Source: a virus
Reading direction: 5' to 3' (one strand)
Length of the DNA: 35,905 bases
UHGV virus genome: UHGV-0095987
In this document: one piece after another, positions 1 through 33,596 of the stretch
How positions within the stretch are numbered: position 1 is the first letter of the stretch
Layout: the number at the start of each line of letters is the position of its first letter
Translations under genes and position numbers: made by a program
The notes under the pieces: generated by a model
What the model was told of the DNA's origin: nothing
What the model saw: the letters and a program-made list of their open reading frames with translations, nothing else
Databases searched by the model: none

Positions 1-6
1 CAAATG

Positions 7-33
7 AAACAGCAGTATTAATTACTGCTTTTT
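7..33 (-). terminator. Putative rho-independent terminator downstream of mom
   Basis: Inverted repeat agcagta / tactgct (7-bp stem, loop ttaat) flanked by T-rich sequence on both strands, immediately after the mom stop codon. Confidence 0.4.
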
Positions 34-49
34 ATTCATTGCATGGGGA

Positions 50-775
50 TCACTTAGGGTATGGCTGAACCCTGAATAGTTTGGTATTTAGCCGCTTCCT
101 TGCTCGCTTGTTCAGGAATCTGATGTAGCGATACTGATTAAATTTGTGCACCACGGCACGCTCTTTATTAGCCCGTAAATACACGCCTCGTTGTCCACCG
201 CGTTTAATCGCGTTCATCGTTATCTCGTGATACCACTCACCATCCAGCTCGTAGAACGTGCTTTCATGGCTGCCAATAAAATCAAAATTTGACGCCTGAT
301 ACACAACGCCAGCACGTCCGCAGCGTTCGTCTGCAAAAGACTGAACCCACTCCACTGACGGATACAGTAACCTTATGGTTTTCAGTGCATAACTGATGGC
401 CCGTGATTCAGAGTTGCGGGGCATGTCGTCGTGTAGCCACATGCGGTTCAACTCCATATAGCCCCGGTTATCCGTTTCAAGCACGACACGACGACCTGAG
501 TTGGGGTTAAGGGCATATCCCCACTGGAGAACGCCAACCAGATCGCGTCCGCTGAATACTCCCAGGTGGAGGTAAGAGTTATTCACAAAACGGCGGGAAT
601 AGTGCTTTGTCTGAATAATTGTGCGGGCCAGCCAGCAGGATATGGTTTCAACGCGCAGCTCCTTTGAACCATAGCCAACAATCTGGCCTTCATACTCAAT
701 AACGCACGGTTTCGTCAGAATGCGTGATTTTTTCTCTTTTCCCACAATGTTTCTCCGTGGGATGCTCGCAGGCAT
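50..775 (-). CDS. mom: Mom DNA-modification protein (adenine modification, anti-restriction)
   Basis: 241-aa ORF at the right-end position after com, with ATG start; 5' end overlaps the com 3' end as in Mu. True start could be slightly internal. Confidence 0.85.
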
Positions 776-884
776 TCAGCATTATGATGTGACGTTTGCA
801 ACGCGGACACCTGATTTCAATGTGATCAAAGGAATCCGCCTTAAATAACAGTTTGTTGCAGTTTTTACAGCGAATTGATTTCAT
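696..884 (-). CDS. com: Com zinc-finger translational activator of mom
   Basis: 62-aa [14 protein letters not shown]... with CxxC...CxxC zinc-finger motifs; AGGAGG ribosome-binding site 6 nt upstream; overlaps mom start. Confidence 0.9.
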
Positions 885-958
885 CTCACCTCCTTTGCAT
901 CAATTCGCCACTATCTTAAAAAACATCATGGGTTGAGTGTGGTTATTGAGACATAATC
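885..958 (-). promoter_or_regulatory. Pmom late promoter with C-activator binding site
   Basis: Minus strand reads gattatgtctcaataaccacactcaacccatgatgttttttaagatagtgg upstream of the com RBS: T6 run followed by TAAGAT -10-like hexamer, no good -35. The same T-run/-10 architecture recurs upstream of lys and I. Confidence 0.7.
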
Positions 959-993
959 GATCTGTATTACCGATCGATTTGATTTATTCGATC
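959..993. promoter_or_regulatory. Cluster of three Dam GATC sites upstream of Pmom (methylation-sensitive OxyR control region)
   Basis: GATC at about 959-962, 972-975 and 990-993 within 35 bp, overlapping the gin stop codon. The position matches the known Dam-dependent mom regulatory region of Mu. Confidence 0.65.
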
Positions 994-1560
994 GTCGTTT
1001 TCTATATGCGTTCGTTTCGCGGGGTGTTTTTTATACAGAGTTGACAGGGCCACATCGTAGATCAATGCAACCTGCTTGCGGGGGATTCCTTGTGCTAATA
1101 AACGCCCGGCCTGCTCCCATTCCGCTTTGGTTAGTTTAGGTGGTCGCCCACCAATACGGCCTTTATTTCTGGCGGCAGCAAGTCCAGCCATCGTTCGCTC
1201 GATAATTAGTTCTCGTTCCATTTCAGCCAGGGCACCCATAACGTGGAAGAAAAAACGCCCCATTGGAGATGACGTATCAATACTGTCAGTAAGACTGCGA
1301 AAATTAATCCCTCGCTCTCGTAATTCCCCTACGAGAGAAATCAAATGTTTCATGCTTCGCCCGAGGCGATCCAGTTTCCAGACAACCAGTGTGTCACCTT
1401 TTTGAAGGCGCTTTAAAGCGCGTTTTAATCCCGGTCGGTCTGTCCTTGTTCCGCTTAATTTATCTTCAAATATTTGTTCACATCCTGCACAAACAAGAGC
1501 GTTTCGTTGCAGGTCTGTATTCTGGTCATTTGTTGATACCCTTACATAGCCAATCAGCAC
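967..1560 (-). CDS. gin: Gin serine invertase (G-segment DNA invertase)
   Basis: Protein ...LIGYVRVSTNDQNTDLQRNALVCAGCEQIFEDKLSGTRTDRPGLKRAL... is a serine recombinase with catalytic Ser in the YVRVST motif. ORF track extends to a TTG at 1587; a GTG at 1558-1560 preceded by AGGAG is the likelier start. Confidence 0.9.
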   Translation of the reverse strand: MLIGYVRVSTNDQNTDLQRNALVCAGCEQIFEDKLSGTRTDRPGLKRALKRLQKGDTLVVWKLDRLGRSMKHLISLVGELRERGINFRSLTDSIDTSSPMGRFFFHVMGALAEMERELIIERTMAGLAAARNKGRIGGRPPKLTKAEWEQAGRLLAQGIPRKQVALIYDVALSTLYKKHPAKRTHIENDDRINQIDR

Positions 1561-1614
1561 TCTGGATCTCCTGTTTAAAAGCGCCAATCATGCCATGCGT
1601 GCCAAAATCGACCA

Positions 1615-1655
1615 TTATCCAAAACCTCGGTTTGCAGGAAACGATAAATCAGGCT
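1615..1655. repeat. gix left inverted repeat (Gin recombination site)
   Basis: ttatccaaaacctcggtttgcaggaaacgataaatcaggct; reverse complement found at 4661-4701 with 3 mismatches over about 41 bp. Confidence 0.85.
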
Positions 1656-2576
1656 TCAGGCGCATTGCAGAAAAACCAGAACGGCGCAGATATTCCAAAC
1701 AAAGATAAATTTACGCAAACAATAGGTGCTTGCCGCTCTTTTCATGGTGCTATTAGCACAGGTGCAGGAAACTGGACGACGGCACAATTGATTGAATGGC
1801 TGGATTCTCAAGGGGCATTCAATCACCCATACTGGATGTGCAAATGTTCATGGTCATACGGCAATAATAAAATTATTACCGATACTGGCTGTGGAACTAT
1901 TCATCTTGCAGGTTGCGTTATTGAGGTTATGGGTAATAAAGGTGCCATGACCATCCGTGTAACAACACCAAGCACTTCCAGCGGTGGCGGAATCACTAAC
2001 GCTCAATTCACTTATATTAATCATGGTGATGCTTACGCTCCTGGCTGGCGACGAGACTACAACACGAAAAACCTGCAACCTGCATTTGCTTTAGGGCAGA
2101 CAGGAAACAGGGTTGCAAATGATAAAGCTGTTGGCTGGAACTGGAATAGCGGTGTTTATGATGCAGACCTAAAAGGCGCATCAACATTAATTCTTCATTT
2201 CAATATGAACGCGGGTAGCTGCCCGGCTGTACAATTACGCGTGAATTATAAGAACGGCGGTATTTATTATCGTTCAGCGCGAGATGGTTATGGATTTGAG
2301 GCTGACTGGTCAGAGTTTTATACCACAACCCGCAAACCCTCTGCGGGAGATGTTGGTGCATATACCAAAGCTGAATCGGATTCTCGCTATGTACGAGATA
2401 TTCGCCTGGGCACTCGTGTTGTTCAGACCATGCAAAAAGGCGTGATGTATGAGAAATCAGGTCATGTAATTACAGGGCTTGGCATTATTGGCTCTGTTGA
2501 TGGCGATGATCCGGCTGTATTCAGACCAATACAAAAATACATCAATGGCACATGGTATAACGTGGCGCAGGTGTAA
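1617..2576 (+). CDS. S': S' tail-fibre variable segment (silent in this G orientation; would fuse to the S constant part after inversion)
   Basis: ORF in frame through the gix repeat. Shares the IQNLGLQET...NGADIPNK junction motif and the C-terminal [12 protein letters not shown] motif with S; the central part differs. Confidence 0.75.
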   Translation: MQNLGLQETINQASGALQKNQNGADIPNKDKFTQTIGACRSFHGAISTGAGNWTTAQLIEWLDSQGAFNHPYWMCKCSWSYGNNKIITDTGCGTIHLAGCVIEVMGNKGAMTIRVTTPSTSSGGGITNAQFTYINHGDAYAPGWRRDYNTKNLQPAFALGQTGNRVANDKAVGWNWNSGVYDADLKGASTLILHFNMNAGSCPAVQLRVNYKNGGIYYRSARDGYGFEADWSEFYTTTRKPSAGDVGAYTKAESDSRYVRDIRLGTRVVQTMQKGVMYEKSGHVITGLGIIGSVDGDDPAVFRPIQKYINGTWYNVAQV

Positions 2577-2579
2577 CTT

Positions 2580-3113
2580 ATGCAGCATTTAAAAAACATT
2601 GTCGCAGGTAATCCAAAAACCGTTGAACAATATCAGCTAACAAAGAATTTTAATGTTATCTGGTTATGGTCTGAAGACGGAAAAAACTGGTATGAGGAAG
2701 TGAAAAACTTTCAGGAAGATACAATAAAGCTAGCTTACACAGCAGAGGGAGTTATTGTTGCTATTGATAAGGATGTATCGGCAATTAATCCAGAAGGTTT
2801 AAGCGTTGTTGAGTTGCCTGATATAACAGCCAATAGATGGGCTGATATTTCGGGTAACTGGATGTTCAAAGATGGCGCGGTGATAAAGCGAACTTATACC
2901 GAGGAGGAACAGAGGCAGCAGGCAGAGAATGAAAAGCAAAGCCTGTTGCAACTTGTCAGGGATAAAACCCAGCTATGGGACTCACAGCTACGGCTGGGTA
3001 TCATTTCCGACGAGAATAAACAAAAATTAACCGAGTGGATGCTCTATGCGCAGAAAGTCGAATCTACAGACACTTCCAGCTTGCCAGTAACGTTTCCCGA
3101 ACAACCAGAATGA
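2580..3113 (+). CDS. U': U' tail-fibre assembly protein (alternative partner of S')
   Basis: 177-aa ORF; first about 50 aa near-identical to U ([24 protein letters not shown]... vs [24 protein letters not shown]...). Confidence 0.8.
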
Positions 3114-3116
3114 GAG

Positions 3117-3143
3117 AAGGCCCGATATCGGGCCTTAATTTTT
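3117..3143. terminator. Bidirectional hairpin terminator between the convergent U' and U genes
   Basis: Perfect palindrome aaggcccgatatcgggcctt followed by aattttt, in the 28-bp gap between the two convergent stop codons. Confidence 0.6.
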
Positions 3144-3669
3144 ACTCAGGCTTTTGTGGCCATTCGGGCTTTGCCGTATCCACACGGCTGACCATAACAC
3201 TGTAGCGTTCCCATGCTTCCAGTCGGCTACGCTCCTCATCCGTCGCCATATTCAGCCTGACAGCGCGCTCCAGTGGCTGAATAACGCTTTCCGCTTCGGA
3301 AAGTAATGCGGCCTTTTGTGATTCGGCCTGTTGCTGCTGCTCGTCTGCCGTATAAATCCGTTTAACTACAGCTCCGTCCTTAAACATCCACTTACCGGAA
3401 TCATCGGCCCGACGATTGGCTGTTATATCGGGGACCTCAACGACGTTAAAACCTTCAGGGTTAAGCGTGGAGGCATCTTTAGTTATGGCAACAATAATAT
3501 TATGTTCATCGTAAACAATCTTTATTGTGTCTTCCTGAAAATTCTTTACCTCTTCATACCAGTTTTTTCCGTCTTCGGACCACAACCAGATAACGTCAAA
3601 ATTCTTTGTTAATTCGTACTGTTCCAGTGTTTTAGCGTTACCCGCTTTAATGTTCTTTAAGTGCATCAT
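3142..3669 (-). CDS. U: U tail-fibre assembly protein
   Basis: 175-aa ORF immediately downstream of S on the minus strand; N-terminal homology to U'. Confidence 0.85.
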
Positions 3670-3670
3670 A

Positions 3671-5197
3671 TTAAACGCTCGCTACATTATACCAGGTGCC
3701 ATTTATATACTTTTGAACTGGTCTGTAATAAACGCCAGCTATATTATCGGCAGAGTTGGAACCTGTATCCTGAACATTAATACCAGACAACACATGACCT
3801 GAAGGGCACTGGAAATTCCATGTTTGCCAGTTGTTCACTCCATAATATTGCTGTGAACCAAGTCGAACATCTTTCACATATCTGGAATCAAAATTGCCAT
3901 AGTTGCCGGGAATAACTTGCGAGCCGCAAAGCCAGTTCCCGTTATTATCCATGTACGCCTGACCATCGGTGCCATTGGCTGTCCTTGAGTTATTAATCAT
4001 GTAGATGCCAAATTGCTTGTTCCCCAGTCCACCTATCATGAACTTTCGGTCGGCGTGATTCTGGCGAAGCAACGCCTGAGCGCTATCAGTGTTAACTATA
4101 TTTTTCCCAAAGATAGCGTTGTTATCGCGCATCTGAATCCACATACCATTACTGCTGTTAATAGCAAAACGGTCTGAAAGTGTCTCCCCTGAAACATTAA
4201 GTCCACGCCCCATCGAAACAGCGCCAGTAGCGTTATTAATCCATAATGGCCTTAATCCGTTATAAGTCCCCATGTTGTCACCGGAGTTTGTCAACATGAA
4301 GTATGTATTTGAACCATCATTACGAATAAAGAATCCGTAATTACCATAAGCAATACGTAGGCCGTTTGCTGATTTTGATATGACTTCGCCATTTACAATG
4401 GCATTGACAAGAACATACAAAGCATCCCATTTAAGATTCATCAGGTCTTTTGTTGTGGTGCTTTGTTTGCTTCTCCATTTGAAATATTCATTGCCGTTGT
4501 CGCCTGTTTCAAACCACATGTATGAATCAGTATCGCTGTCGGCATCATTTTTAAAACCAATTTTTGCCCAGTCAGTATTTCGAATCCAGGCAAGAATTGA
4601 GTCGTTTTCAAAAGTAAGTCCGCCGGACAAGGTATCGCCTGTCTTTTGAACGGCATTACCAGCCTTGTTTACCGTTTCCTGTAAACCGAGGTTTTGGATA
4701 AACAGCGGCTTATTGGGAATATCTGCTCCGTTCCGGTCTTTTGCCAGACGGGCATTGGCATTATCCATTGCAATTTTCACCGCTTTTGCGGTGGCTGCCA
4801 GCGTTTCACTGGGGCTGTCAGTGGCACTGGTTAGCTGAACGAGTCCTTTCTTGTTCAGGCTGGCATCATTAATATCCAGATTTTCACGTGCTGTACGCTG
4901 TGCTGATGTCCCGGCAGTTTTAATTTCGCTGAGGTTATTTTTTATCAGCAGCGCATTCTTGTTCATGATGGCTTTAATGGACAGTGCAAGCTGGTTTAAT
5001 TTTGTTTTATCCGGTTGAATACCGGCTTCTTCCAGCGTGTTTAATAACTCCGCCTGCACAATATTAAACCAGTCCATGCCGGGCCATGTGATAACATTAT
5101 TCCCGTCACCTTCTGAAAACCAGCGAACGATAGCACTACGCTGGGCGGATACGGGCGGCATGACGGTTACGCCGCTGTCGTTATCAATATAAAACAT
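3671..5197 (-). CDS. S: S tail-fibre protein (constant part 4702-5197 outside G, variable part 3671-4701 inside G)
   Basis: 508-aa ORF spanning the right gix repeat; C-terminal motif [14 protein letters not shown] shared with S'. Confidence 0.85.
4661..4701. repeat. gix right inverted repeat
   Basis: Reverse complement of 1615-1655; core ttcctgtaaaccgaggttttggataa. Confidence 0.85.
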
Positions 5198-5739
5198 TAG
5201 TTATCTCCGTCATGGTAAACAAATTTATAAATCTGATGCGCGGGTTTATATTTCTCCAGTAAACACTCCAGCGCACCCGATTCATAAACACGTAACGGCG
5301 TCAGAACATTATCCAGCACCGTTGCGTTGCGATAATTTTTAATACCGTAAATATTGACCTGCGTAACCCACTGGCCTTCTGTGGAATCCGTCAGCCTGAC
5401 GGTAAAACCGTACTGCGCAGCCAGCCATTCATAAAAGCGCCGACTCAGATTGCCGGTCATACGCATTTTATTCGCGGCAGCCCGCTGGCGTTCGGACAGG
5501 GTGCCGTTTTCGCTTGTACAGTCCGGCAACCCCAGAAATGATTCCCACTCCCCCAGATACCAGCGGGATGTGGACGGGAAACGCTCCCGCAGCATTTGCC
5601 GCGCATCATCCGCCGCAGTGGCAATCACGTCACTGATGGCCTGCGCCAGCGCAGATAATTTGCTGTCGGGGCTTTTATTCCAGGCAAGCCCTGACGGCAG
5701 TAATTGCAGAAAGGCCGTCTGATAGGGTGTTACAGCCAT
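5197..5739 (-). CDS. R: Baseplate/tail protein (Mu gp48-like, P2 gpI-like), assigned by gene order
   Basis: 180-aa ORF between the baseplate J-like gene and the tail-fibre gene; start/stop overlaps with neighbours typical of a translationally coupled operon. Confidence 0.55.
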   Translation of the reverse strand: MAVTPYQTAFLQLLPSGLAWNKSPDSKLSALAQAISDVIATAADDARQMLRERFPSTSRWYLGEWESFLGLPDCTSENGTLSERQRAAANKMRMTGNLSRRFYEWLAAQYGFTVRLTDSTEGQWVTQVNIYGIKNYRNATVLDNVLTPLRVYESGALECLLEKYKPAHQIYKFVYHDGDN

Positions 5740-26827: not shown

Positions 26828-27190
26828 TTACCCGAACAGACGAGCGCGAAAACGAAAGGAGAGCCAGAACGTCAGCAATCCGGCCAGCGCCCAGATGACA
26901 TGCTCAGGACCCGTTTTCAGTTGAGACGTTGCCATCACGGCTAATCCCAGCCCGGACAGACTCCCCAGCCAGGTCAGAGGCCAGACGAACCGGGCAAAAT
27001 GTTCAGGCACCCGGCAGCTCATTATCAGCGCATCCAGACAATCAGCGGCAACACATAAAGCAACACTGAAAACCGAGGCACAGCAAAACATCAGCGCGCG
27101 CCAGCCACAAAACAGACTTATCCACAATAACAGCGCCAGTAATACCACCGATAAAAAATCAGGCCACTGACGAGCAGAACGCTCAGACAT
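26828..27190 (-). CDS. Polytopic membrane protein (Mu gp19-like)
   Basis: Internal ATG (MSERSARQWPDF...) preceded by GGGAGAAA; 3-4 predicted transmembrane helices. Confidence 0.5.
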   Translation of the reverse strand: MSERSARQWPDFLSVVLLALLLWISLFCGWRALMFCCASVFSVALCVAADCLDALIMSCRVPEHFARFVWPLTWLGSLSGLGLAVMATSQLKTGPEHVIWALAGLLTFWLSFRFRARLFG

Positions 27191-27401
27191 AATGTTTCTC
27201 CCTGTAAAGCAGGCAATGATGAAGAATTTCCGGCATATCAACTGACTGCCAGCCTTTCATGTAATAACTGCCGTGGGTGCCATCATGACCGGTATAGTCG
27301 CGGGGCGCAGGCCGTGGCCCACCGGCGACACGGTGCAAAACCTCCTGACGCAGCCGCTCACGTCTGCCAAGATAAAAGGATGCATTCCAGCCTTTACCCA
27401 T
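27183..27401 (-). CDS. Hypothetical protein, first gene of the middle operon (Mu gp18-like)
   Basis: 72-aa ORF starting about 45 nt downstream of the early terminator. Confidence 0.4.
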   Translation of the reverse strand: MGKGWNASFYLGRRERLRQEVLHRVAGGPRPAPRDYTGHDGTHGSYYMKGWQSVDMPEILHHCLLYREKHYV

Positions 27402-27448
27402 GATGATTTCCCCCGGTACGGTTATTCATCACAGGATATTGAGGACGT
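27402..27448 (-). promoter_or_regulatory. Probable Mor-dependent middle promoter Pm region
   Basis: Non-coding stretch between the early terminator and the first middle ORF, about 1.15 kb upstream of the C stop, consistent with the Mu middle transcript; exact -10 not resolved. Confidence 0.45.
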
Positions 27449-27470
27449 AAAAAAAGCCGGATTAACCGGC
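27449..27470 (-). terminator. Rho-independent terminator of the early operon (t9.2-like)
   Basis: Minus strand GCCGG-TTAAT-CCGGC followed by TTTTTTT, 9 nt after the mor stop codon. Confidence 0.8.
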
Positions 27471-27478
27471 TTTACTGT

Positions 27479-27868
27479 TTACAGAAGTGAGGGCTGGTAC
27501 TGGCGGTATTTCAGCCGTCGCATCCGGCGAATGGCCTTGTAAACCGTATTGAAAGTGACACCATAACGGGTGGTCAGTTCGCTGACGTTGCGACCGTTAA
27601 AATCATTCCAGATACGCAAATCCCGAATCAGCGAGTCCAGAACCTGACCGCGTGGAATGTAGACCTGACCGCCGCCCAGATGCTTACAGATAGCCACAAC
27701 AATCTCCAGTGAATGGGCAGGATCAACACCCAGCCGGGACAATTCCCCGCGCAGTAAATCGTTCAGCTCCGCCAGCAGTGCCGGAAAGCGTGACGTATCC
27801 TCTGCGGGATTGTCAAGATGTGCCAGGATGGTGTCATCCTGCAAATCACCAAATAAATCTTCCGTCAT
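27479..27868 (-). CDS. mor: Mor, middle-operon transcriptional activator
   Basis: 129 aa MTEDLFGDLQDD...; paralogue of C; last early gene before the terminator; overlaps the gemA stop. Confidence 0.9.
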   Translation of the reverse strand: MTEDLFGDLQDDTILAHLDNPAEDTSRFPALLAELNDLLRGELSRLGVDPAHSLEIVVAICKHLGGGQVYIPRGQVLDSLIRDLRIWNDFNGRNVSELTTRYGVTFNTVYKAIRRMRRLKYRQYQPSLL

Positions 27869-28416
27869 TGTGCCATCCTCCGTGTCTTTCTGGCATGGGC
27901 ATAAGCCGCCGTCATGGCATCATAGCCGCGCAGTTCACGCCCGGACGGACTGACCGGCAATGGAAGCCCGTGACGGGAAAAGGCTTCACGAATACAGCGG
28001 ATATGCCACTGCTTGAGAGTTTCGAGAACAATCAACAGGGTGTCGCCATGACACCACGCCAGCGTGGAAACACCCTGTCCGCCATTACGTTTCGCCGTCA
28101 GGCGCTGAACATATTTATCCAGCGCCACATCACCGCCATCGGTAATAAAACCGTCTTCTGCCATCTGCTGCCAGACTTTGTATACCTTCTCGCGGGGCGT
28201 GACATGCCCCTTAAAGCGGCGACGTGGATGTTTATTCAGCTTCTTAAAGCCGTGTTCTTTCATGGCATCGAGCACCTGTTCCAGTTGCGTAACCGTCAGC
28301 TCGCGGCAACTGATGTTGCCCGTTTTCTGCATCAGAAAAGCGCGGTAAGTGTCGTCGTCGAGTTGTAGCTCCCGACGGGCGACATGGATTAATTTAATCA
28401 GGGATGTGCGATTCAT
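27865..28416 (-). CDS. gemA: GemA (host gene expression modulation protein)
   Basis: 183 aa MNRTSLIKLIHVARRELQLDDDTYRAF...; GGAGGT RBS; immediately upstream of mor. Confidence 0.85.
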   Translation of the reverse strand: MNRTSLIKLIHVARRELQLDDDTYRAFLMQKTGNISCRELTVTQLEQVLDAMKEHGFKKLNKHPRRRFKGHVTPREKVYKVWQQMAEDGFITDGGDVALDKYVQRLTAKRNGGQGVSTLAWCHGDTLLIVLETLKQWHIRCIREAFSRHGLPLPVSPSGRELRGYDAMTAAYAHARKTRRMAQ

Positions 28417-28434
28417 GATCGTACCTCCGGAAAG

Positions 28435-28456
28435 AGGCGGTGCTGCAACACCGCCT
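28435..28456. promoter_or_regulatory. Stem-loop just upstream of the gemA RBS
   Basis: aggcggtg-ctgcaa-caccgcct (8-bp GC-rich stem) with CTCTTTCC following on the minus strand; not a strong terminator, so possibly an attenuator or RNA processing/stability element. Confidence 0.35.
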
Positions 28457-28485
28457 GAATTTACACATCAATCAGAGAGGATTTT

Positions 28486-28752
28486 ATGGAAAATAATGTA
28501 CAACCTTATGATGTTGCAGGTTATGCGATTGCATCAGCACTGGTGCGCCTTCTGGTGAAGAAGGCGATCATCACCGCAGAAGAGGGCCAGGCCATTTTCA
28601 GCTCTTCAGCAGAGATTTTAAAAGATGCGCCTGCAATAAGAACAAGCCGCCGCGAAAACATGCAACTGTCAAAGATCATGGAAGACATTATCAGTTCGTT
28701 AGACCCAGATGCTGACGGATCTCAAAAGCCTCAAACACATGAGCGTCAGTAA
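28486..28752 (+). CDS. Hypothetical 88-aa protein encoded antisense to the early operon
   Basis: ATG preceded by GAGAGG at 5-nt spacing; amphipathic, helix-like sequence (MENNVQPYDVAGYAIASALVRLLVKKAIITAEEGQAIF...); occupies a 274-bp stretch with no convincing minus-strand gene. Confidence 0.4.
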   Translation: MENNVQPYDVAGYAIASALVRLLVKKAIITAEEGQAIFSSSAEILKDAPAIRTSRRENMQLSKIMEDIISSLDPDADGSQKPQTHERQ

Positions 28753-28993
28753 CAATATCCTGGTCTGATAACCCCAGCCTGCGGCGGATGTACTCCTCGC
28801 GGGCTGTTTCATTTTGCAGTGCCACTACTGTTTCCAGACGATTCATTTCGCGGTTGATAATGTCACGGACTTCTCTGGCGGTGAGATTATGCTTAATACC
28901 ATATTCAACGATAGCGCGAACACGTTCCAGCATCCCTTTTTCAGCCATGACGTTATCAATATTAAGGGGAGTAAATTTATCTTCATTGTTCAT
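28691..28993 (-). CDS. Early accessory protein, function unknown
   Basis: 100-aa ORF with ATGA overlap to the upstream gene; charged and helical. Confidence 0.5.
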   Translation of the reverse strand: MNNEDKFTPLNIDNVMAEKGMLERVRAIVEYGIKHNLTAREVRDIINREMNRLETVVALQNETAREEYIRRRLGLSDQDIVTDAHVFEAFEIRQHLGLTN

Positions 28994-29313
28994 TTTGCGG
29001 CCCTCAGAATAAATTCAGGATAAAATTTCAGACTCATTTGCCGTAACACATCCAGTGCAGCAACGGCTGCTGATTTATCGTTGCCATCAGCAATAGCGCG
29101 GAGATTTTCAATAATCCAGTGAGGACTCAGTGACTCAGCAATAATGCCAAACCGGTACGCCATGACCTCATCAATAGCTTTTTCATGAGACGTCTCATAT
29201 ACAAAATTCACAAAGTCATGCACTTCTTTTTTCGGCAAACCACCGGCAATCAGCAGGGCGGCAAGCTCTTCTGATTTTGAAAATACACCATTATTCATAT
29301 CACTCACCTTCAC
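28990..29313 (-). CDS. Early accessory protein, function unknown
   Basis: 107-aa ORF in the tightly packed early block. Confidence 0.5.
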   Translation of the reverse strand: MKVSDMNNGVFSKSEELAALLIAGGLPKKEVHDFVNFVYETSHEKAIDEVMAYRFGIIAESLSPHWIIENLRAIADGNDKSAAVAALDVLRQMSLKFYPEFILRAAK

Positions 29314-29482
29314 AATTCATGCACGCCGTGTCATCGCCCATATCGCAGTGGTTGCATTTCTGCCCGCCACAATGAGGGCACTCTTTCAGATATTCAGGGG
29401 ATTCATTACCGCAGGTCGGGCATTCCTGTTTCACCGTGGTAAATTTCCCCAGCCACGAATACGATGTTTCATTGTTTTCCAT
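29300..29482 (-). CDS. Early accessory zinc-ribbon protein
   Basis: 60 aa with CPTCG...CPHCG...CNHC...CMNC (four CxxC pairs). Confidence 0.5.
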   Translation of the reverse strand: MENNETSYSWLGKFTTVKQECPTCGNESPEYLKECPHCGGQKCNHCDMGDDTACMNCEGE

Positions 29483-29999
29483 TGTTTACCTCCGCCTGTT
29501 TTTGCGCCCGGATAAATTCGTCAGAAAGGATTTCAGTCATGCGGCCCTGTGCGGGAGTCATCCCTGTCATGACGTAAATCACATCACCAACACGGAACCA
29601 CCGGAGCGGGCCAAATATTGTTGCGCTGAAATCCAGTCCCAGTGCGGGTAAGAGAGCGTCAGTACGGGCATAAGTGACCGGAATATTCTCCTGCCATATT
29701 TTCGCCAGCTCTTTTGACTGCTCCCGCAGATGTGCAGGAATGCGCGATGTTCTTGGCCTGCAACTGTTACCTGATGCGGAGCGTTGTACAGTCCACAACT
29801 CCGGCGAGAAAGGTCGCTCATTCCCCGGAAAATTCACGCCATGAAAATGACGCCCACCAATACCTGTGCTGAATACTGACCGGCAACCACAACCCAGAAC
29901 CTTATCAAGATGGCGGGCTTCTTCGCGTAGTTTCAGGCAGTCCGCCATAAACTGGTCCCATGCCAGCAGTGCTGCGGGATTTGACGTTTTAAAAAACAT
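29469..29999 (-). CDS. Early accessory protein, function unknown
   Basis: About 176 aa from the internal ATG (MFFKTSNPAALL...) that overlaps the upstream stop; the ORF track extends to 30038. Confidence 0.5.
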   Translation of the reverse strand: MFFKTSNPAALLAWDQFMADCLKLREEARHLDKVLGCGCRSVFSTGIGGRHFHGVNFPGNERPFSPELWTVQRSASGNSCRPRTSRIPAHLREQSKELAKIWQENIPVTYARTDALLPALGLDFSATIFGPLRWFRVGDVIYVMTGMTPAQGRMTEILSDEFIRAQKQAEVNNGKQ

Positions 30000-30529
30000 C
30001 ACGCCACCTCCTGCACCGCTGCGGGAGCCGGAGAACAATCAAGAATGAGATAACGCAGTACATGGTCGGTGATATTCCAGGCGCTGGAACTGCAAATAAA
30101 ACGCCCCAGCCGGATATCGATATAAGCCATCACAAAACGGGGCATTCCCTGTTCGCACATTCTGTTGTCCACTTCTGCAACGATGTGAACGGATTCACAG
30201 GTCAGCACGCCTGTTGCAAATTCTTTTGCCAGTGCCGGAATGGCATTGCCTTCCAGCCAGGGCAATGGGCGGCGGAAGGAACACCACGCGGCATCATCAA
30301 CAGCAGACTGCTCAGTTGCGTTTCGTCTTACAGGCTGCTCTGTACGGGGACGCGGTACGTCGTAAAAACCATTAAGTTCAGTCAGCATTCCGGCATCAAC
30401 CGCATCACGCAGGAAGTACACCATTGCGGAGGATGGCATCTGCATTTTTTCAGCCAGAACCCCGCAGGTCAGGCGTCCGTAAGCCCGTAATAATGTGCTG
30501 ACACCATTCAGAATTTTTGCATCAACCAT
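29999..30529 (-). CDS. Early accessory protein, function unknown
   Basis: 176-aa ORF with GAGGAATAAA RBS; directly follows the AT-rich gap after gam. Confidence 0.5.
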   Translation of the reverse strand: MVDAKILNGVSTLLRAYGRLTCGVLAEKMQMPSSAMVYFLRDAVDAGMLTELNGFYDVPRPRTEQPVRRNATEQSAVDDAAWCSFRRPLPWLEGNAIPALAKEFATGVLTCESVHIVAEVDNRMCEQGMPRFVMAYIDIRLGRFICSSSAWNITDHVLRYLILDCSPAPAAVQEVA

Positions 30530-30627
30530 GTTTTATTCCTCAGTAATCTGTTTCAGGCGCGAGCAATTCCCTGACGCATCGCGCCATAATTAAAAGCATG
30601 TGAATTAATTAAATATTAATGGTGGTA

Positions 30628-31152
30628 TTAAATACCTGCTTCCTGTTCAAACGGAATAATGGAAAAATCTTCAATTCCCGATTTAACCGTAATTCCGGCA
30701 ACACCTGCGACGGCTTTTGGTTCCAGTAAAATCGCCTCCTTGTTGATTTCCTGCTTCGTGCGAATAAAGCGTTGCAGGCCAAGACGCTCCAGCGTTTCCA
30801 TTACGGCATCCACGCCGCGAATACTCACTGATGGCGGGCGTTGACGCCATGACACATCGCCGGTGACAAGATTTGCCGTCTTCACTTTGCCGCCGTTCGT
30901 CAGTTCGTCGCGGTTCGCTTCACACCATCCCTGAACGCCTTTTGAAAGGGTTTCAATATCGGTTTTAATCGGTGCAATCCGGGCCGCAAATTTCTCCGTA
31001 ATTTCCGCGATGGCATCATTCATTTCCGTTTCCAGACGTGATGCTTCGCGCTGTAAATCCCCGATGCGTTTAATATCGGTAATCACCGCATCGCGGTTTT
31101 GTGGCACATAAGCCGCTGCGGCACTTTTGATGCGTTTTGCTGGTTTAGCCAT
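30628..31152 (-). CDS. gam: Gam, DNA-end-binding host-nuclease inhibitor (Ku-like)
   Basis: 174 aa MAKPAKRIKSAAAAYVPQNRDAVITDIKRIGDLQREASRLE... recognised as Mu Gam. Confidence 0.9.
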   Translation of the reverse strand: MAKPAKRIKSAAAAYVPQNRDAVITDIKRIGDLQREASRLETEMNDAIAEITEKFAARIAPIKTDIETLSKGVQGWCEANRDELTNGGKVKTANLVTGDVSWRQRPPSVSIRGVDAVMETLERLGLQRFIRTKQEINKEAILLEPKAVAGVAGITVKSGIEDFSIIPFEQEAGI

Positions 31153-31171
31153 AAATTAAAGCTCCTGTTAA

Positions 31172-31471
31172 TTAATATCCGCTGTATACAATGCTGGATA
31201 CAGCACGATTGCTTAATTCCATTTTTCGGGCAATGACATGAATATCCAGCCCTTCTTTATAAAGTTCACGACACAAATATTTGTCGTGCTCACTGATTCG
31301 GTATACACACAATGATATTCCGTGCCTTCTGGCATGTGCCCGGAGGGCGGTTGTGGCGACTTTCAGTTTTTCCGCCATTTCTTCAACGGTCATTTTCCCG
31401 ACGTTGGCTTCGATAAATTCCCGGTCTTCGCGTGACCAGCGCTTACGATTACACTTCATGTCAGCCACCAT
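31172..31471 (-). CDS. Early accessory protein, function unknown
   Basis: 99-aa ORF immediately upstream of gam; basic N-terminus. Confidence 0.5.
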   Translation of the reverse strand: MVADMKCNRKRWSREDREFIEANVGKMTVEEMAEKLKVATTALRAHARRHGISLCVYRISEHDKYLCRELYKEGLDIHVIARKMELSNRAVSSIVYSGY

Positions 31472-31891
31472 TCAGTACAGCAGAGGCTCGCGCAGTGATG
31501 CCGGAATATGCCGCAGCGATAACTGAACTGCTTTCAGGGCAAGCGAGGAATAACAGCAGCGCGCCCAGCCTTTTGCCATTAACCGGTAATCGCGCCAGAT
31601 GCGCTGCCACATTTCACGGGCTTCAGGGTCTGATGCGCAGATGTATTCCCGGTCCATGACGTATTCCCATAAATCCGCATTGAACGCACCGCCAAATGCA
31701 ATGGCGCGGGATATGCTTTCGCCGCAATAACGCGCACAGATGCTGTAATGGTCGAAAGCAATCAGGTAAGTCTTTTCACCACAACCATCAACTTTCCGGG
31801 CGCAAATAAACTCGCGTAATTCACCACCGTTGTTATTGCGTTCCTGAATTCGGATTAATGCCTGAATTTCATTTCGGATTTTGACGTTCAT
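31472..31891 (-). CDS. Early accessory Cys-rich protein, function unknown
   Basis: 139 aa with 9 Cys and several Trp/Tyr; abuts the next gene with no gap. Confidence 0.5.
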   Translation of the reverse strand: MNVKIRNEIQALIRIQERNNNGGELREFICARKVDGCGEKTYLIAFDHYSICARYCGESISRAIAFGGAFNADLWEYVMDREYICASDPEAREMWQRIWRDYRLMAKGWARCCYSSLALKAVQLSLRHIPASLREPLLY

Positions 31892-31911
31892 TGTCAGCGC
31901 TCCTTTGCGAA

Positions 31912-32181
31912 TTAATGTCTGGCTGTATTCGGGTTATAGCTGAATAATTTCCCCTCAGCTTCCAGCCCAAGCTCCCTGGCTGATTTCAACAACTCCTCGG
32001 TCGCTTTTTTAATGATTTCAGGAGCCATGCTCTTGATGATGCCTGCCATTACGTCATGTGGCCCGGTCTGGTCCTCAGGTGAGGATTCTTCCAGTCGCAC
32101 ATTCATATTTACGGCAAAACCTCCATTTTCCTGAAACTCAATATTTTCTGTATTGTTAAGTTCAAAGATTACTTTCGCCAT
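31912..32181 (-). CDS. Early accessory protein, function unknown
   Basis: Start chosen at MAKVIFELNN, 7 nt after AGGT; the ORF track extends to 32325 but that would overlap the upstream ORF by about 130 nt. Confidence 0.45.
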   Translation of the reverse strand: MAKVIFELNNTENIEFQENGGFAVNMNVRLEESSPEDQTGPHDVMAGIIKSMAPEIIKKATEELLKSARELGLEAEGKLFSYNPNTARH

Positions 32182-32194
32182 TTTCATTACCTGC

Positions 32195-32407
32195 TTATTG
32201 ATTAACGGGTGTTGCATTTGTGATTTTGTTAAGTTCACAAAACACATCTTCTGCGTGATGATGGTTGCCGACATGAACGACCAGCCTGTGACCATCAATA
32301 AACTCAAAAGCAATACCGCCCTCAACAGTCGTTTCCATTACACTGACATTATCAAGGTTGATTAACCTACTGATTCCCAGATTATCGTGAATATTTATCA
32401 CCATCAT
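32195..32407 (-). CDS. Early accessory protein, function unknown
   Basis: 70-aa ORF directly after the kil-position gene. Confidence 0.4.
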   Translation of the reverse strand: MMVINIHDNLGISRLINLDNVSVMETTVEGGIAFEFIDGHRLVVHVGNHHHAEDVFCELNKITNATPVNQ

Positions 32408-32414
32408 TTAAATG

Positions 32415-32642
32415 CTATCTCCAGATAATCTGGCAACCATTAAGACGGGCCGTCCATACAGAACGGGCCACCCCGGACTTATGCTCCATAATTCTGACCG
32501 CGTTTTTTACCAGTTCCACCGGTGGGTAAGTGATTTCAAGAATCGGACGCGCCACGCCGAGATATGATTCATTTACATGACTCCCGCGCGCCTGTAACCA
32601 GTTCTGCGCATCCGTTGCCATTTTTATATTTCGGGCCATCAT
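32415..32642 (-). CDS. kil: Kil-like host-killing protein (first gene after B)
   Basis: 75-aa ORF 15 nt downstream of B, the position and size of Mu kil. Confidence 0.55.
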
Positions 32643-32657
32643 AATTTCTTCTCCTTC

Positions 32658-33596
32658 TTAATTACGCAGCAGCGTTGAAATATCAACGTCCAGGTCTAAT
32701 TCACGGAAAGCCTGACGCAGATAATCTTCGTTAACACGCTCACCTTTACCGTGAGCCGTCATGGCGGCAAGGCGAAGTGAATGATTCAGAATGCGAAGCG
32801 CACCTGGTTTCTGCGCAATCTGCTGTAATAACTCCAGTTCATTTTCGCCGTTAATCTGCCAGGCATCCGCAATAGCTTTTACATCGGCTTTTTTGGTTTT
32901 ATTAATTGCAGTGCGCTTTGCAATACGGGAAAACAGACGGGCAAATTCAACCGTTCTGTTACCCCCCGTCATATTTGAATAAACCCGGTGATTTCCCATC
33001 AGCACAAGGCCAGTGCGGGTTGATTCCTGTAACAGGCGGAGTTCTTCCAGAACTTCGGCACCAAGATGATCAGCTTCGTCGATGATAACCAGCCCCTGTG
33101 TACCTTCAAGGCGACGTCGCAGGGCACGGGAGAGTGGCCCTTTACGGCGTGGTGCGTCATTCATTCCCAGCTCAAACGCCAGTTCAGTAAGACATTCCAG
33201 AACGCTGGCACAGGATGGCGTAATGGTGATCATCCAGACATTGTTATTGGTGCGGCGATATTCACGGGCCGCTTCGGTTTTGCCCACACCAGGATTGCCA
33301 CATACAACAGCAATACTTTCAGTCAGGCTGGCAAAACGCATACTTGTCCAGATTTGTTTTACCGTCTGCGTTTCCACAAAGCGGGGCGGTTCAGGTAGTT
33401 CTGCCACTGCATGATATTTTTCCAGCCAGCGTTGCAGCATTTGTGAAACACGCTCGTTATCCCCGTTGTACTTATCATTGATAAAACTACTGATAGTTCC
33501 GGTAGAAAGTCCGCTCTCAAGAGCAATTTGTTTAAAGGTGGTTTCTTCATTTTCTACAAGCGTGCGCAGTCCTGCGCGAATATCGGAAATATTCAT
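32658..33596 (-). CDS. B: MuB, ATP-dependent target DNA activator
   Basis: 312 aa MNISDIRAGLRTLVENEETTFKQIA...; Walker A motif GNPGVGKT; directly downstream of A. Confidence 0.95.
   Translation of the reverse strand: MNISDIRAGLRTLVENEETTFKQIALESGLSTGTISSFINDKYNGDNERVSQMLQRWLEKYHAVAELPEPPRFVETQTVKQIWTSMRFASLTESIAVVCGNPGVGKTEAAREYRRTNNNVWMITITPSCASVLECLTELAFELGMNDAPRRKGPLSRALRRRLEGTQGLVIIDEADHLGAEVLEELRLLQESTRTGLVLMGNHRVYSNMTGGNRTVEFARLFSRIAKRTAINKTKKADVKAIADAWQINGENELELLQQIAQKPGALRILNHSLRLAAMTAHGKGERVNEDYLRQAFRELDLDVDISTLLRN

Follow-up and report, generated by a model that had tools for sequence, protein, structure and literature searches.

The semi-essential early region of a Mu-like Escherichia coli prophage as a mosaic of catalogued alleles

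The window analysed in this work, the whole 35,905-nucleotide stretch of virus genome UHGV-0095987, is a near-complete Mu-like prophage with 100% identity to the chromosome of E. coli 2020C08-115. [quoted passage not shown] According to the ORF map and the RefSeq annotation, the block lies between the transposition genes A and B, with kil, and the genes gemA and mor, all on one strand, and the early genes end at a strong terminator (27473-27453) right after mor. The kil gene is 100% identical to that of Mu, and gemA matches PF06252 (E 2e-29). The preliminary description of this DNA had been right in naming kil, gam and gemA, in placing about ten small ORFs between kil and gemA in the early region of a transposable phage, and in their coordinates. 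An Rfam scan of positions 27000-33000 gave no matches.

Table 1. Features of the SEE region and its convergent neighbour (positions in the window)
Feature	Position	Strand	Length or remark
gp6-position gene (gp6w)	32195-32407	-	70 aa
gp7	31912-32181	-	89 aa
gp8 (Mu E7)	31472-31891	-	139 aa
gp9 (Mu E8)	31172-31459/31471	-	95/99 aa
gam	30628-31152	-	174 aa
hairpin in gam-gp11 spacer	30556-30585	-	conserved, GC-rich
gp11	29999-30529	-	176 aa
gp12	29469-29999	-	176 aa; Pfam Phage_Mu_Gp12
gp13	29300-29482	-	60 aa
gpX (SfMu ORF14 equivalent)	28990-29298	-	102 aa
gp14 (Mu E15)	28691-28993	-	100 aa
gp15	28486-28752	+	88 aa

The SEE region has been called "largely uncharacterized" (PMC3820752, PMC4553209, PMC8705779); in Mu it is not needed for plaque formation and is transcribed from the early promoter (PMC3820752, PMC4553209), and by analogy the same transcription would apply to the block described here. 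In our literature search for functions of Mu gp6 to gp14 we found nothing but descriptions of the region as uncharacterised. The block itself is already known: public collections hold letter-for-letter copies of all ten proteins under the names "hypothetical" or "Mu prophage protein", and each ORF corresponds to Mu gp8, gp9, gp11, gp12, gp13 or gp14, to D108 gp7, to SfMu ORF14 or to a prophage allele present in PHROGs, RefSeq or UniProt as hypothetical. The block had been proposed as the best source of new activities in the window, but every ORF was already catalogued and nothing was newly found.

Translational coupling, which had been suggested for the whole block, applies to part of it. At five junctions the genes adjoin or overlap each other (gp8/gp9, 0 nt; gp11/gp12, -1; gp12/gp13, -14; gp13/gpX, +1; gpX/gp14, -4), whereas three others have gaps of 7-20 nt, mostly with a recognisable Shine-Dalgarno (SD) sequence, that of gp6w being weak, and 98 nt separate gam from gp11. 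The size range had been given as 60-190 aa, of which the lower limit stands; the upper one arose because gp12 was read from a TTG farther upstream, whereas its homologues all start at MFFKTS, giving 176 aa. It is highly improbable that some of the ORFs are chance frames or decaying remnants. Such a reading could draw on dN/dS values that are only moderately below 1 and on few substitutions in gpX (0.52), gp6w (0.36), gp14 (0.32) and gp13 (0.22). However, dozens to hundreds of genomes carry each ORF at full length, most of the ORFs have an SD sequence ahead of them, the overlaps are conserved, and length and frame are preserved in divergent alleles. Over the block, dN/dS against related loci was 0.07-0.52 in the annotated frame and for most genes below that in both shifted frames, the estimates being thin for gp13, gpX and gp14 owing to few changes.

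Comparison with related phages showed that the block is a mosaic of catalogued alleles. Mu (NC_000929 / M64097) has gp6 to gp14 (E5-E15) in the same position, strand and order, and the Mu orthologues from gp8 to gp14 are colinear with 90-99% amino acid identity (gp8 96%, gp9 99%, Gam 99%, gp11 90%, gp12 96%, gp13 97%, gp14 99%), that of gp15 being 95%. The block differs from Mu by an unrelated 70-aa protein in the gp6 slot, a D108-type gp7 and an additional gene (102 aa) that separates gp13 from gp14. D108 (NC_013594) is closer in gp7 (97%), gp8 (99%), gp9 (100%), gp11 (100%) and gp13 (100%), but it has a Mu-type gp6, lacks gpX and gp15, and carries another gp14 allele (36%). SfMu of Shigella and vB_YpM_5/6 of Yersinia share gpX (98-99%), gp12 and gp13 (100%) and gp14 and gp15 (100%), and YpM_5 is the best phage match (96.9% identity, 90% query coverage). 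In SfMu a further gene (DUF5420) lies between gam and gp11, and gp6 and gp7 are of Mu type; YpM_5 differs in having a Mu-type gp6 and a third gp7 allele (39%). Thus kil is of Mu type, the gp6 slot is occupied by a variant confined to prophages, gp7 and gp11 are of D108 type, gp12 and gp13 match SfMu/YpM_5, gpX is of the SfMu ORF14 type, and gp14 and gp15 are of Mu type. A survey of presence and absence in 86 loci showed that most E. coli-type loci have kil, gp9, gam, gp11, gemA and mor and that only a few E. coli-type loci lack gp8, while distant Mu-like loci retained only gam, gemA and mor, sometimes with kil. Within the block, the genes with the widest retention in E. coli/Salmonella-type relatives are gp8, gp9, gam and gp11, although for gp8, gp9 and gp11 this conservation is limited to such close relatives, several of which have no gp8 or gp11 match. 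The gp6, gp7, gp12/13, gpX and gp14/15 positions are replaced as cassettes. The comparison with Mu, D108 and other Mu-like prophages that had been suggested thus yielded variable members at these positions, and gp8, gp9 and gp11 are not fast-swapping.

In the gp6 slot, Mu, D108 and SfMu encode an unrelated 73-76-aa zinc-ribbon gp6 with a CPxC...CPWC pattern, whereas the protein found here is His-rich (pI 5.3; phrog_3375, E 4e-34; dN/dS 0.36). No tblastn match to it was found among 50,697 phage records, positions 32204-32415 have no DNA similarity to Mu, D108, SfMu or YpM_5, and the gene was seen only in Mu-like prophages, between kil and gp7. The adjacent gp7 is acidic (pI 4.8; phrog_2230, E 1e-38) and, judged by identity, is a D108-type allele of a family whose alleles swap between phages: only about 20% of residues are shared with the allele of Mu, yet identity in the flanking genes kil and gp8 is 99-100%. 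A resemblance of gp7 to RraB, a regulator of RNase E (PF06877), was rejected at 16.4 bits against a Pfam gathering cutoff of 23.3 and without PDB profile support. For gp8 (dN/dS 0.18) there were just 24 word-index matches and 11 among 1.84 billion cluster representatives, with no Pfam match, and by this distribution it is an ORFan confined to enterobacterial Mu-like phages. The preliminary description had pointed to a 139-aa Cys-rich protein; gp8 does contain seven Cys, of which close homologues conserve just C52 and C56, whereas C30, C37, C85, C112 and C113 vary, and the remote homologue P0219 retains none of the seven. Since most of its Cys are not conserved, the Cys-richness of gp8 implies no metal site, and a Cys4 metal-binding protein, which needs three or four conserved Cys/His ligands, was rejected. 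Another apparent homologue (P0093, 43%) was also set aside, as it is read in part from an alternative frame of the same DNA and so looks like a frameshifted copy.

The only product of the block with a named function is that of gam, which by its match to Phage_Mu_Gam (PF07352, E 2e-42, 145 bits against a gathering cutoff of 28.3), its near-identity to Mu Gam and its RefSeq name is a Ku-like DNA-end-binding inhibitor of host nuclease. Gam is in use as a DNA-end probe and editing aid. It had been stated that nothing but gam is recognisable here, yet gp9 and gp11 can be recognised as probable helix-turn-helix (HTH) or winged-helix proteins. The gp9 protein matches phrog_323, "transcriptional regulator, D5-like" (E 7e-29), has the lowest dN/dS of the block (0.07) and an invariant LCRELYKEGL..IA.KMELS pattern, and shows consistent HTH matches at residues ~9-50 and ~64-97, all below the curated Pfam/NCBIfam cutoffs, in addition to a weak PDB profile match to 2lvs_A in two stretches (E 0.04). 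Hence it is probably a DNA-binding protein with tandem HTH motifs. For gp11, residues 90-167 match Gp11_C (PF25754) with 134.9 bits against a gathering cutoff of 27, and modelling suggests that this domain is probably preceded by an N-terminal winged helix and a disordered linker. The HTH and winged-helix assignments, which draw on sub-threshold matches or low-pLDDT models, are probable. Between gam and gp11, directly after gam, the hairpin is found in most loci whose Gam is about 62-100% identical and is missing in one group at 60-64% Gam identity (L062-L072, L076). It has a 5-bp core stem with one compensatory pair (C-G to U-A) and is a minimum-free-energy (MFE) hairpin, with no U-tract and no Rfam match. 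Gene content 3' of it varies among relatives, and it could be a functional RNA or DNA element that marks a boundary of cassette exchange.

Farther downstream, the Pfam assignment of gp12 (PF26885) is a precomputed match on the identical protein and all homologues. Its AlphaFold model is confident and alpha/beta, with no fold match in the PDB and only uncharacterised proteins among viral structure models, and gp12 is likely a well-folded member of a phage-only family. Structure and profile checks had been suggested, and for gp12 and gp11 they led to this model and to the probable winged helix. The four CxxC pairs that had been noticed in a 60-aa protein are those of the acidic gp13 (C21/24, C35/38, C42/45, C53/56; dN/dS 0.22), and all eight Cys are invariant in every allele listed. 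Pfam zinc-ribbon matches reached 14-19 bits, under cutoffs of 25-33, DnaJ-CXXCXGXG matches were sub-threshold as well, and gp13 is probably a small double zinc ribbon and a putative metal binder. Membership of the Lar restriction-alleviation family (TIGR03655) was rejected, as the score was 14.9 bits against an NCBIfam cutoff of 39.6 and no single stretch passed. An obligate gp12-gp13 pair was likewise rejected: besides its position after gp12, gp13 occurs directly after gp11 (L011) and fused to a ~175-aa domain (phrog_6418; L019/L022) unrelated to gp12 (hhalign probability 0.5%). The extra gene gpX, described as SfMu-unique in the SfMu paper (PMC4406740), is 98% identical to SfMu gp14 and 99% to its YpM_5 counterpart (phrog_1988, E 2e-49; dN/dS 0.52), with no match in Mu or D108. 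The last gene of the block, gp14 (phrog_6075, E 3e-54; dN/dS 0.32), is met by gp15 (phrog_8747), which converges on it from the opposite strand with a 62-nt overlap and co-occurs with the Mu-type gp14 allele. The gp15 frame is the only one of six that is open in the window and in three further loci (L010/L044/L046) at 65% nucleotide identity, with a pN/pS of 0.5 against 0.64-1.37 in the other frames; these measures mark gp15 as a real gene that lies antisense to the early operon.

Searches for folds and functions gave little beyond these assignments. A phmmer search of the nine uncharacterised ORFs and gp15, concatenated, against all PDB sequences returned nothing below E 0.5, and PDB profile searches with gp7, gp8, gp9, gp11, gp12, gpX and gp14 stayed at chance level (no match for gp7, gp8, gpX and gp14), bar the weak tandem-HTH match for gp9. 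No family of the anti-phage defence models in PADLOC-DB was matched, apart from one marginal HTH stretch in gp9 (E 0.0099), and no ORF scored above threshold for restriction-alleviation families. None of the nine ORFs has an enzyme signature. We consider it likely that the block is a mosaic of non-enzymatic early proteins in which the widely kept trio serves the phage itself and the swappable proteins are directed at the host. In such a scheme the most likely mode of action of the nine proteins would be stoichiometric binding of DNA or host proteins soon after infection or prophage induction; gp8, gp9 and gp11 would tune Mu regulation or replication, gp9 with its two HTH motifs and gp11 with its winged helix and Gp11_C domain acting as nucleic-acid binders; and the small acidic proteins gp6, gp7, gpX, gp14 and gp13 may, by host takeover or counter-defence, fit the phage to certain hosts. 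The division between the two groups is one that we infer from variability alone.

Cassette-like variability fits accessory host-interaction genes. Tip and Aqs1 are early-expressed. These small accessory proteins of the Mu-like temperate Pseudomonas phages D3112 and DMS3 bind host PilB and a quorum-sensing regulator, respectively (PMC12035536); they come from a different host and genus, sequence similarity to them was neither detected nor to be expected, and they can serve as a functional model for the variable ORFs by analogy only. The host-takeover or anti-defence role proposed in the preliminary description is thus in keeping with the cassette variability and with this precedent, but after the defence and restriction-alleviation searches, which gave no match, it is plausible only by analogy. 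Furthermore, the probable DNA binding by gp9 and gp11 and the wide retention of gp8, gp9 and gp11 speak for support of phage-internal regulation or replication no less than for anti-defence.

Allele or cassette replacement at gp6, gp7, gp12/13, gpX and gp14 between near-identical flanks, the small, acidic and non-enzymatic nature of the proteins, and the neighbouring nuclease inhibitor gene gam would agree with an anti-defence island, in which the majority of the small ORFs would serve solely to inhibit bacterial immune systems. We regard this as rather unlikely, because PADLOC matched no known defence family, the sub-threshold Lar score of gp13 was the sole restriction-alleviation hint, the widely kept gp8, gp9 and gp11 look like DNA binders, and the known anti-CRISPRs of Pseudomonas Mu-like phages lie in the late and not the early region (PMC4378225). 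Alternatively, the ORFs might encode the classical SEE phenotypes and have their targets in the replication, transposition and regulation of Mu and not in the host: arm (amplified replication), cim (control of immunity) and sot/lig were mapped between B and C (PMC4553209), gp9 and gp11 resemble DNA-binding proteins, and the three most widely kept genes, gp8, gp9 and gp11, show the stronger purifying selection. This is a tentative option, since it leaves the cassette swapping at the other positions unexplained, and replication in more distant Mu-like phages proceeds with none of these genes present. It is improbable that some ORFs, especially gp15 and its partner gp14, are morons whose expression from the prophage protects or alters the host, for instance by superinfection exclusion. 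Being a real gene on the strand opposite the early operon, gp15 would suit such a role, and low early-promoter transcription in lysogens has been suggested as a host benefit (PMC3820752); however, a search for a promoter-like site for gp15 found none, no defence family was matched, and the other nine ORFs are part of the lytic early operon.

Mu is among the classic model phages, and to our knowledge functions have not been assigned to about 3.7 kb of its early operon since the 1980s. If a host-takeover or counter-defence factor were indeed encoded here, a long-standing gap would be filled and new tools might follow, although the window does not improve on the sequences of Mu, D108 and SfMu in making the SEE question testable. 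At least one swappable protein may act by an undescribed mechanism, for example as a novel inhibitor acting on host defence or on a housekeeping target, which we think possible but not probable; candidates could be the allele-swapped gp7, the prophage-only gp6-slot protein, gp13, and gp12 with no PDB fold relative. What the analysis adds is a ranking, which puts gp7 and the gp6 slot first as arms-race candidates and gp12 first as a structural target, treats the Cys of gp8 as a red herring and leaves gp13 as the only credible metal-binding module.

The block at 28691-32407 (minus strand) is the semi-essential early (SE/SEE) region of a Mu-like phage. The minus-strand ORF map reads ner, a 666-aa transposase, a 312-aa AAA+ protein, small ORFs, gam, small ORFs, gemA and mor, and by megablast the stretch 27400-32700 matches exclusively Muvirus phages: the Yersinia phages vB_YpM_5/6 (90% covered, 96.9% identity), SfMu (90%, 95.6%), Mu (85%, 95.7%) and D108 (80%, 97.2%). 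The block itself matches the E. coli 2020C08-115 chromosome at 100% identity, and among 5,426 complete genomes of E. coli, 90 contain related copies. RefSeq labels all of its ORFs except gam "hypothetical protein"; in the preliminary description, too, gam alone was recognisable between kil and gemA. The equivalent positions in Mu records are named gp6-gp14, or E5-E15, which agrees with the earlier placement in the dispensable early region of a transposable phage. In Mu, this region is early-transcribed and non-essential and is described as encoding "largely uncharacterized functions" (PMC3820752), and the classical phenotypes arm and cim have been mapped to some part of it (PMC4553209). A strong intrinsic terminator (8-bp stem, T-run) lies 6 nt past the mor stop codon, where the Mu early transcript is expected to end, and D108 has a terminator annotated at the same place. 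The lower-GC end of the window (1-5200, 0.44-0.46) carries ORFs on both strands in a layout that, by comparison with Mu, would correspond to the mom/gin end plus the invertible G segment and its alternative tail-fibre genes, so that the window is presumably an almost complete prophage in which just the repressor end is missing.

The block had been described as about ten small early genes, and ten minus-strand ORFs do fill it exactly. First-pass lengths were too great for gp7 (137 aa), gp12 (189 aa) and gpX (107 aa) because of upstream TTG/GTG starts; homologue alignments and RefSeq gave 89, 176 and 102 aa, respectively. Of the size range of 60-190 aa, the lower value (gp13) stands and the upper one is lost with the correction of gp12. 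The start of gp9 is ambiguous: ATG 31471 (minus strand, 99 aa) adjoins the gp8 stop codon (TGAATG) and is chosen in the Mu and D108 records, ATG 31459 (95 aa) has GGTGG upstream and is chosen by RefSeq PGAP, and conservation starts only from R9-K-R-W. Public collections contain exact copies of all ten proteins, and the clusters to which these belong have 24-435 members. Against related loci, dN/dS is 0.07-0.52 in the annotated frame, below both shifted frames for most genes, this evidence being thin for gp13, gpX and gp14, which have few changes. The ten ORFs are genes.

Positions and spacing of features in and around the early block (negative distances are overlaps)
Feature	Position	Strand	Distance (nt)	Remark
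gp6w	32195-32407	-		70 aa, His-rich
gp6 slot	32204-32415			
gpX	28990-29298	-		SfMu ORF14 type
gp15	28486-28752	+		88 aa, antisense to early operon
Terminator after mor	27473-27453	-		
Hairpin GGCGCGAUGCGUCAGGGAAUUGCUCGCGCC	30556-30585	-		GC-rich, within gam-gp11 spacer
Mini-ORF MARCVRELLAPETDY	30571-30618	-		15 codons and stop
ORFs of lower-GC end	50-775, 967-1587, 1389-3113, 3142-5197	both		
Junction gp8/gp9			0	
Junction gp11/gp12			-1	
Junction gp12/gp13			-14	
Junction gp13/gpX			+1	
Junction gpX/gp14			-4	
Remaining junctions			7-20	Shine-Dalgarno recognisable for most, weak for gp6w
Gap gam to gp11			98	
Gap gp14 to gemA			274	

The comparison with Mu, D108 and other Mu-likes that had been proposed was run by scoring every window protein in 80 IMG/VR loci around Gam relatives and in Mu, D108, SfMu and YpM_5, and it separated widely kept from swapped positions. 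Among E. coli-type Mu-likes, most loci have kil, gp9, gam, gp11, gemA and mor, and nearly all have gp8; at the remaining positions, whole cassettes are swapped while the flanks stay nearly identical. Of these genes, Mu-likes whose Gam is 60-80% identical retain just gam, gemA and mor, with kil in some cases. The gp6 slot has no similarity to Mu, D108, SfMu or YpM_5: whereas the Mu/D108/SfMu gp6 (compared in L002, L004, L005 and L006) is a zinc-ribbon-like protein of 73-76 aa with CPxC...CPWC, the window has the unrelated gp6w. This protein has no tblastn match in 50,697 deposited phage records; it occurs in prophages (phrog_3375), where its gene invariably lies between kil and gp7. The window's gp7 is the D108 allele (97%), while the Mu allele is colinear at only about 20% identity and that of YpM_5 is at about 39%. 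gpX corresponds to ORF14 of SfMu, reported as unique to SfMu (PMC4406740), and is absent from Mu and D108. For gp14 and the opposite-strand gp15 the window has the Mu alleles; D108 gp14 is at 36%, and D108 lacks gp15. This mixture of Mu-, D108- and SfMu-type parts with a prophage-only part makes the block a new combination of old parts, and its components are not new, being Mu/D108/SfMu genes and catalogued prophage alleles.

The 60-aa ORF with four CxxC pairs noticed earlier is gp13, and all eight of its Cys are invariant in every listed allele, fusion proteins included. The gene is placed after gp12, directly after gp11 (L011 and L016, with a 14-nt overlap as in the window's gp12/gp13), or its probable zinc-ribbon module is fused to the C-terminus of a ~175-aa domain (IMG/VR loci L019, L022, L026 and L053; phrog_6418), which was ruled out as a gp12 relative (hhalign probability 0.5%). 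Because of the fusion to a gp12-unrelated domain and the direct adjacency to gp11, gp13 behaves as an independent, mobile, conserved module and not as a fixed partner of gp12. The 139-aa Cys-rich protein, gp8, does have seven Cys, of which just two, C52 and C56, are retained by homologues of 73-97% identity; the single remote homologue has none of the seven. With cysteines this variable, gp8 is not taken to be a metal-binding protein. This correction and the candidate ranking are the useful outputs of the analysis. gp8 is an ORFan, with 11 matches, mostly fragments, among 1.84 billion cluster representatives. Two of its relatives are probably artefacts of assembly or annotation, which make gp8 look more diverse than it is: P0093 (149 aa), scored as a 43% homologue, partly reads the same DNA in another frame and so looks like a frameshifted copy, and P0072 (231 aa), from a 1.2-kb contig, is a read-through fusion of Mu-type gp7 and gp8.

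Family scans assigned one PHROG of unknown function to almost every ORF, and gam to PF07352. gp9 matches phrog_323 ("transcriptional regulator, D5-like", E 7e-29), its HTH matches are consistent over two segments and all sub-threshold, and a profile of six homologues weakly matches the tandem-HTH protein 2lvs (E 0.04), so that gp9 is a probable two-HTH DNA-binding protein. gp6w, gp7, gpX and gp14 are small and mildly acidic, with no hydrophobic segments found and no relatives among PDB entries. The early-operon position, the purifying selection and the split into widely kept and swappable genes are observed; the block proteins most likely act by binding, because they have no enzyme signatures. 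For gp9 and gp11 the target would be nucleic acid, in the service of the phage's own regulation or replication; for the swappable small proteins it would be host factors, an analogy drawn from Tip and Aqs1, which belong to Mu-like phages of Pseudomonas (PMC12035536). A PADLOC scan of the block ORFs gave no match, leads to Lar (14.9 against a cutoff of 39.6 bits) and RraB (16.4 against 23.3 bits) failed, and no match in the Pfam, PHROG, NCBIfam and PADLOC scans, none of them a dedicated counter-defence library, supports an anti-defence role of any particular ORF. The proposed host-takeover or anti-defence functions are, by this analogy, reasonable but unproven.

gp15 converges on gp14, shares 62 nt with the 3' end of that gene and always accompanies the Mu-type gp14 allele. 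Its frame is the sole open one of six both in the window and in loci at 65% nucleotide identity (pN/pS 0.5), and we regard gp15 as a real gene. From its orientation, gp15 would be expressed without the early promoter, but no promoter-like site was found for it.

The hairpin after gam is present once in the window, is preceded by an AT-rich tract, and has no U-tract and no Rfam match. Most loci in which Gam is at least about 62% identical keep it directly behind gam, whichever gene comes next; a single distant group (L062-L072 and L076) lacks it. Its stem shows one compensatory pair, C-G to U-A. The hairpin marks where the variable segment begins on its left side, and in SfMu-type phages a DUF5420 gene is inserted just after it. 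The mini-ORF overlapping the hairpin is also seen in L004, L031, L036, L037, L041 and L045. Elsewhere, the MARCVRGLLAPES reading continues into the ORF of the next cassette, and such N-terminal extensions in ORF calls are probably artefactual; the SfMu DUF5420 protein, for instance, has 201 aa with a MARCVRGLLAPES-type extension against the annotated 184 aa.
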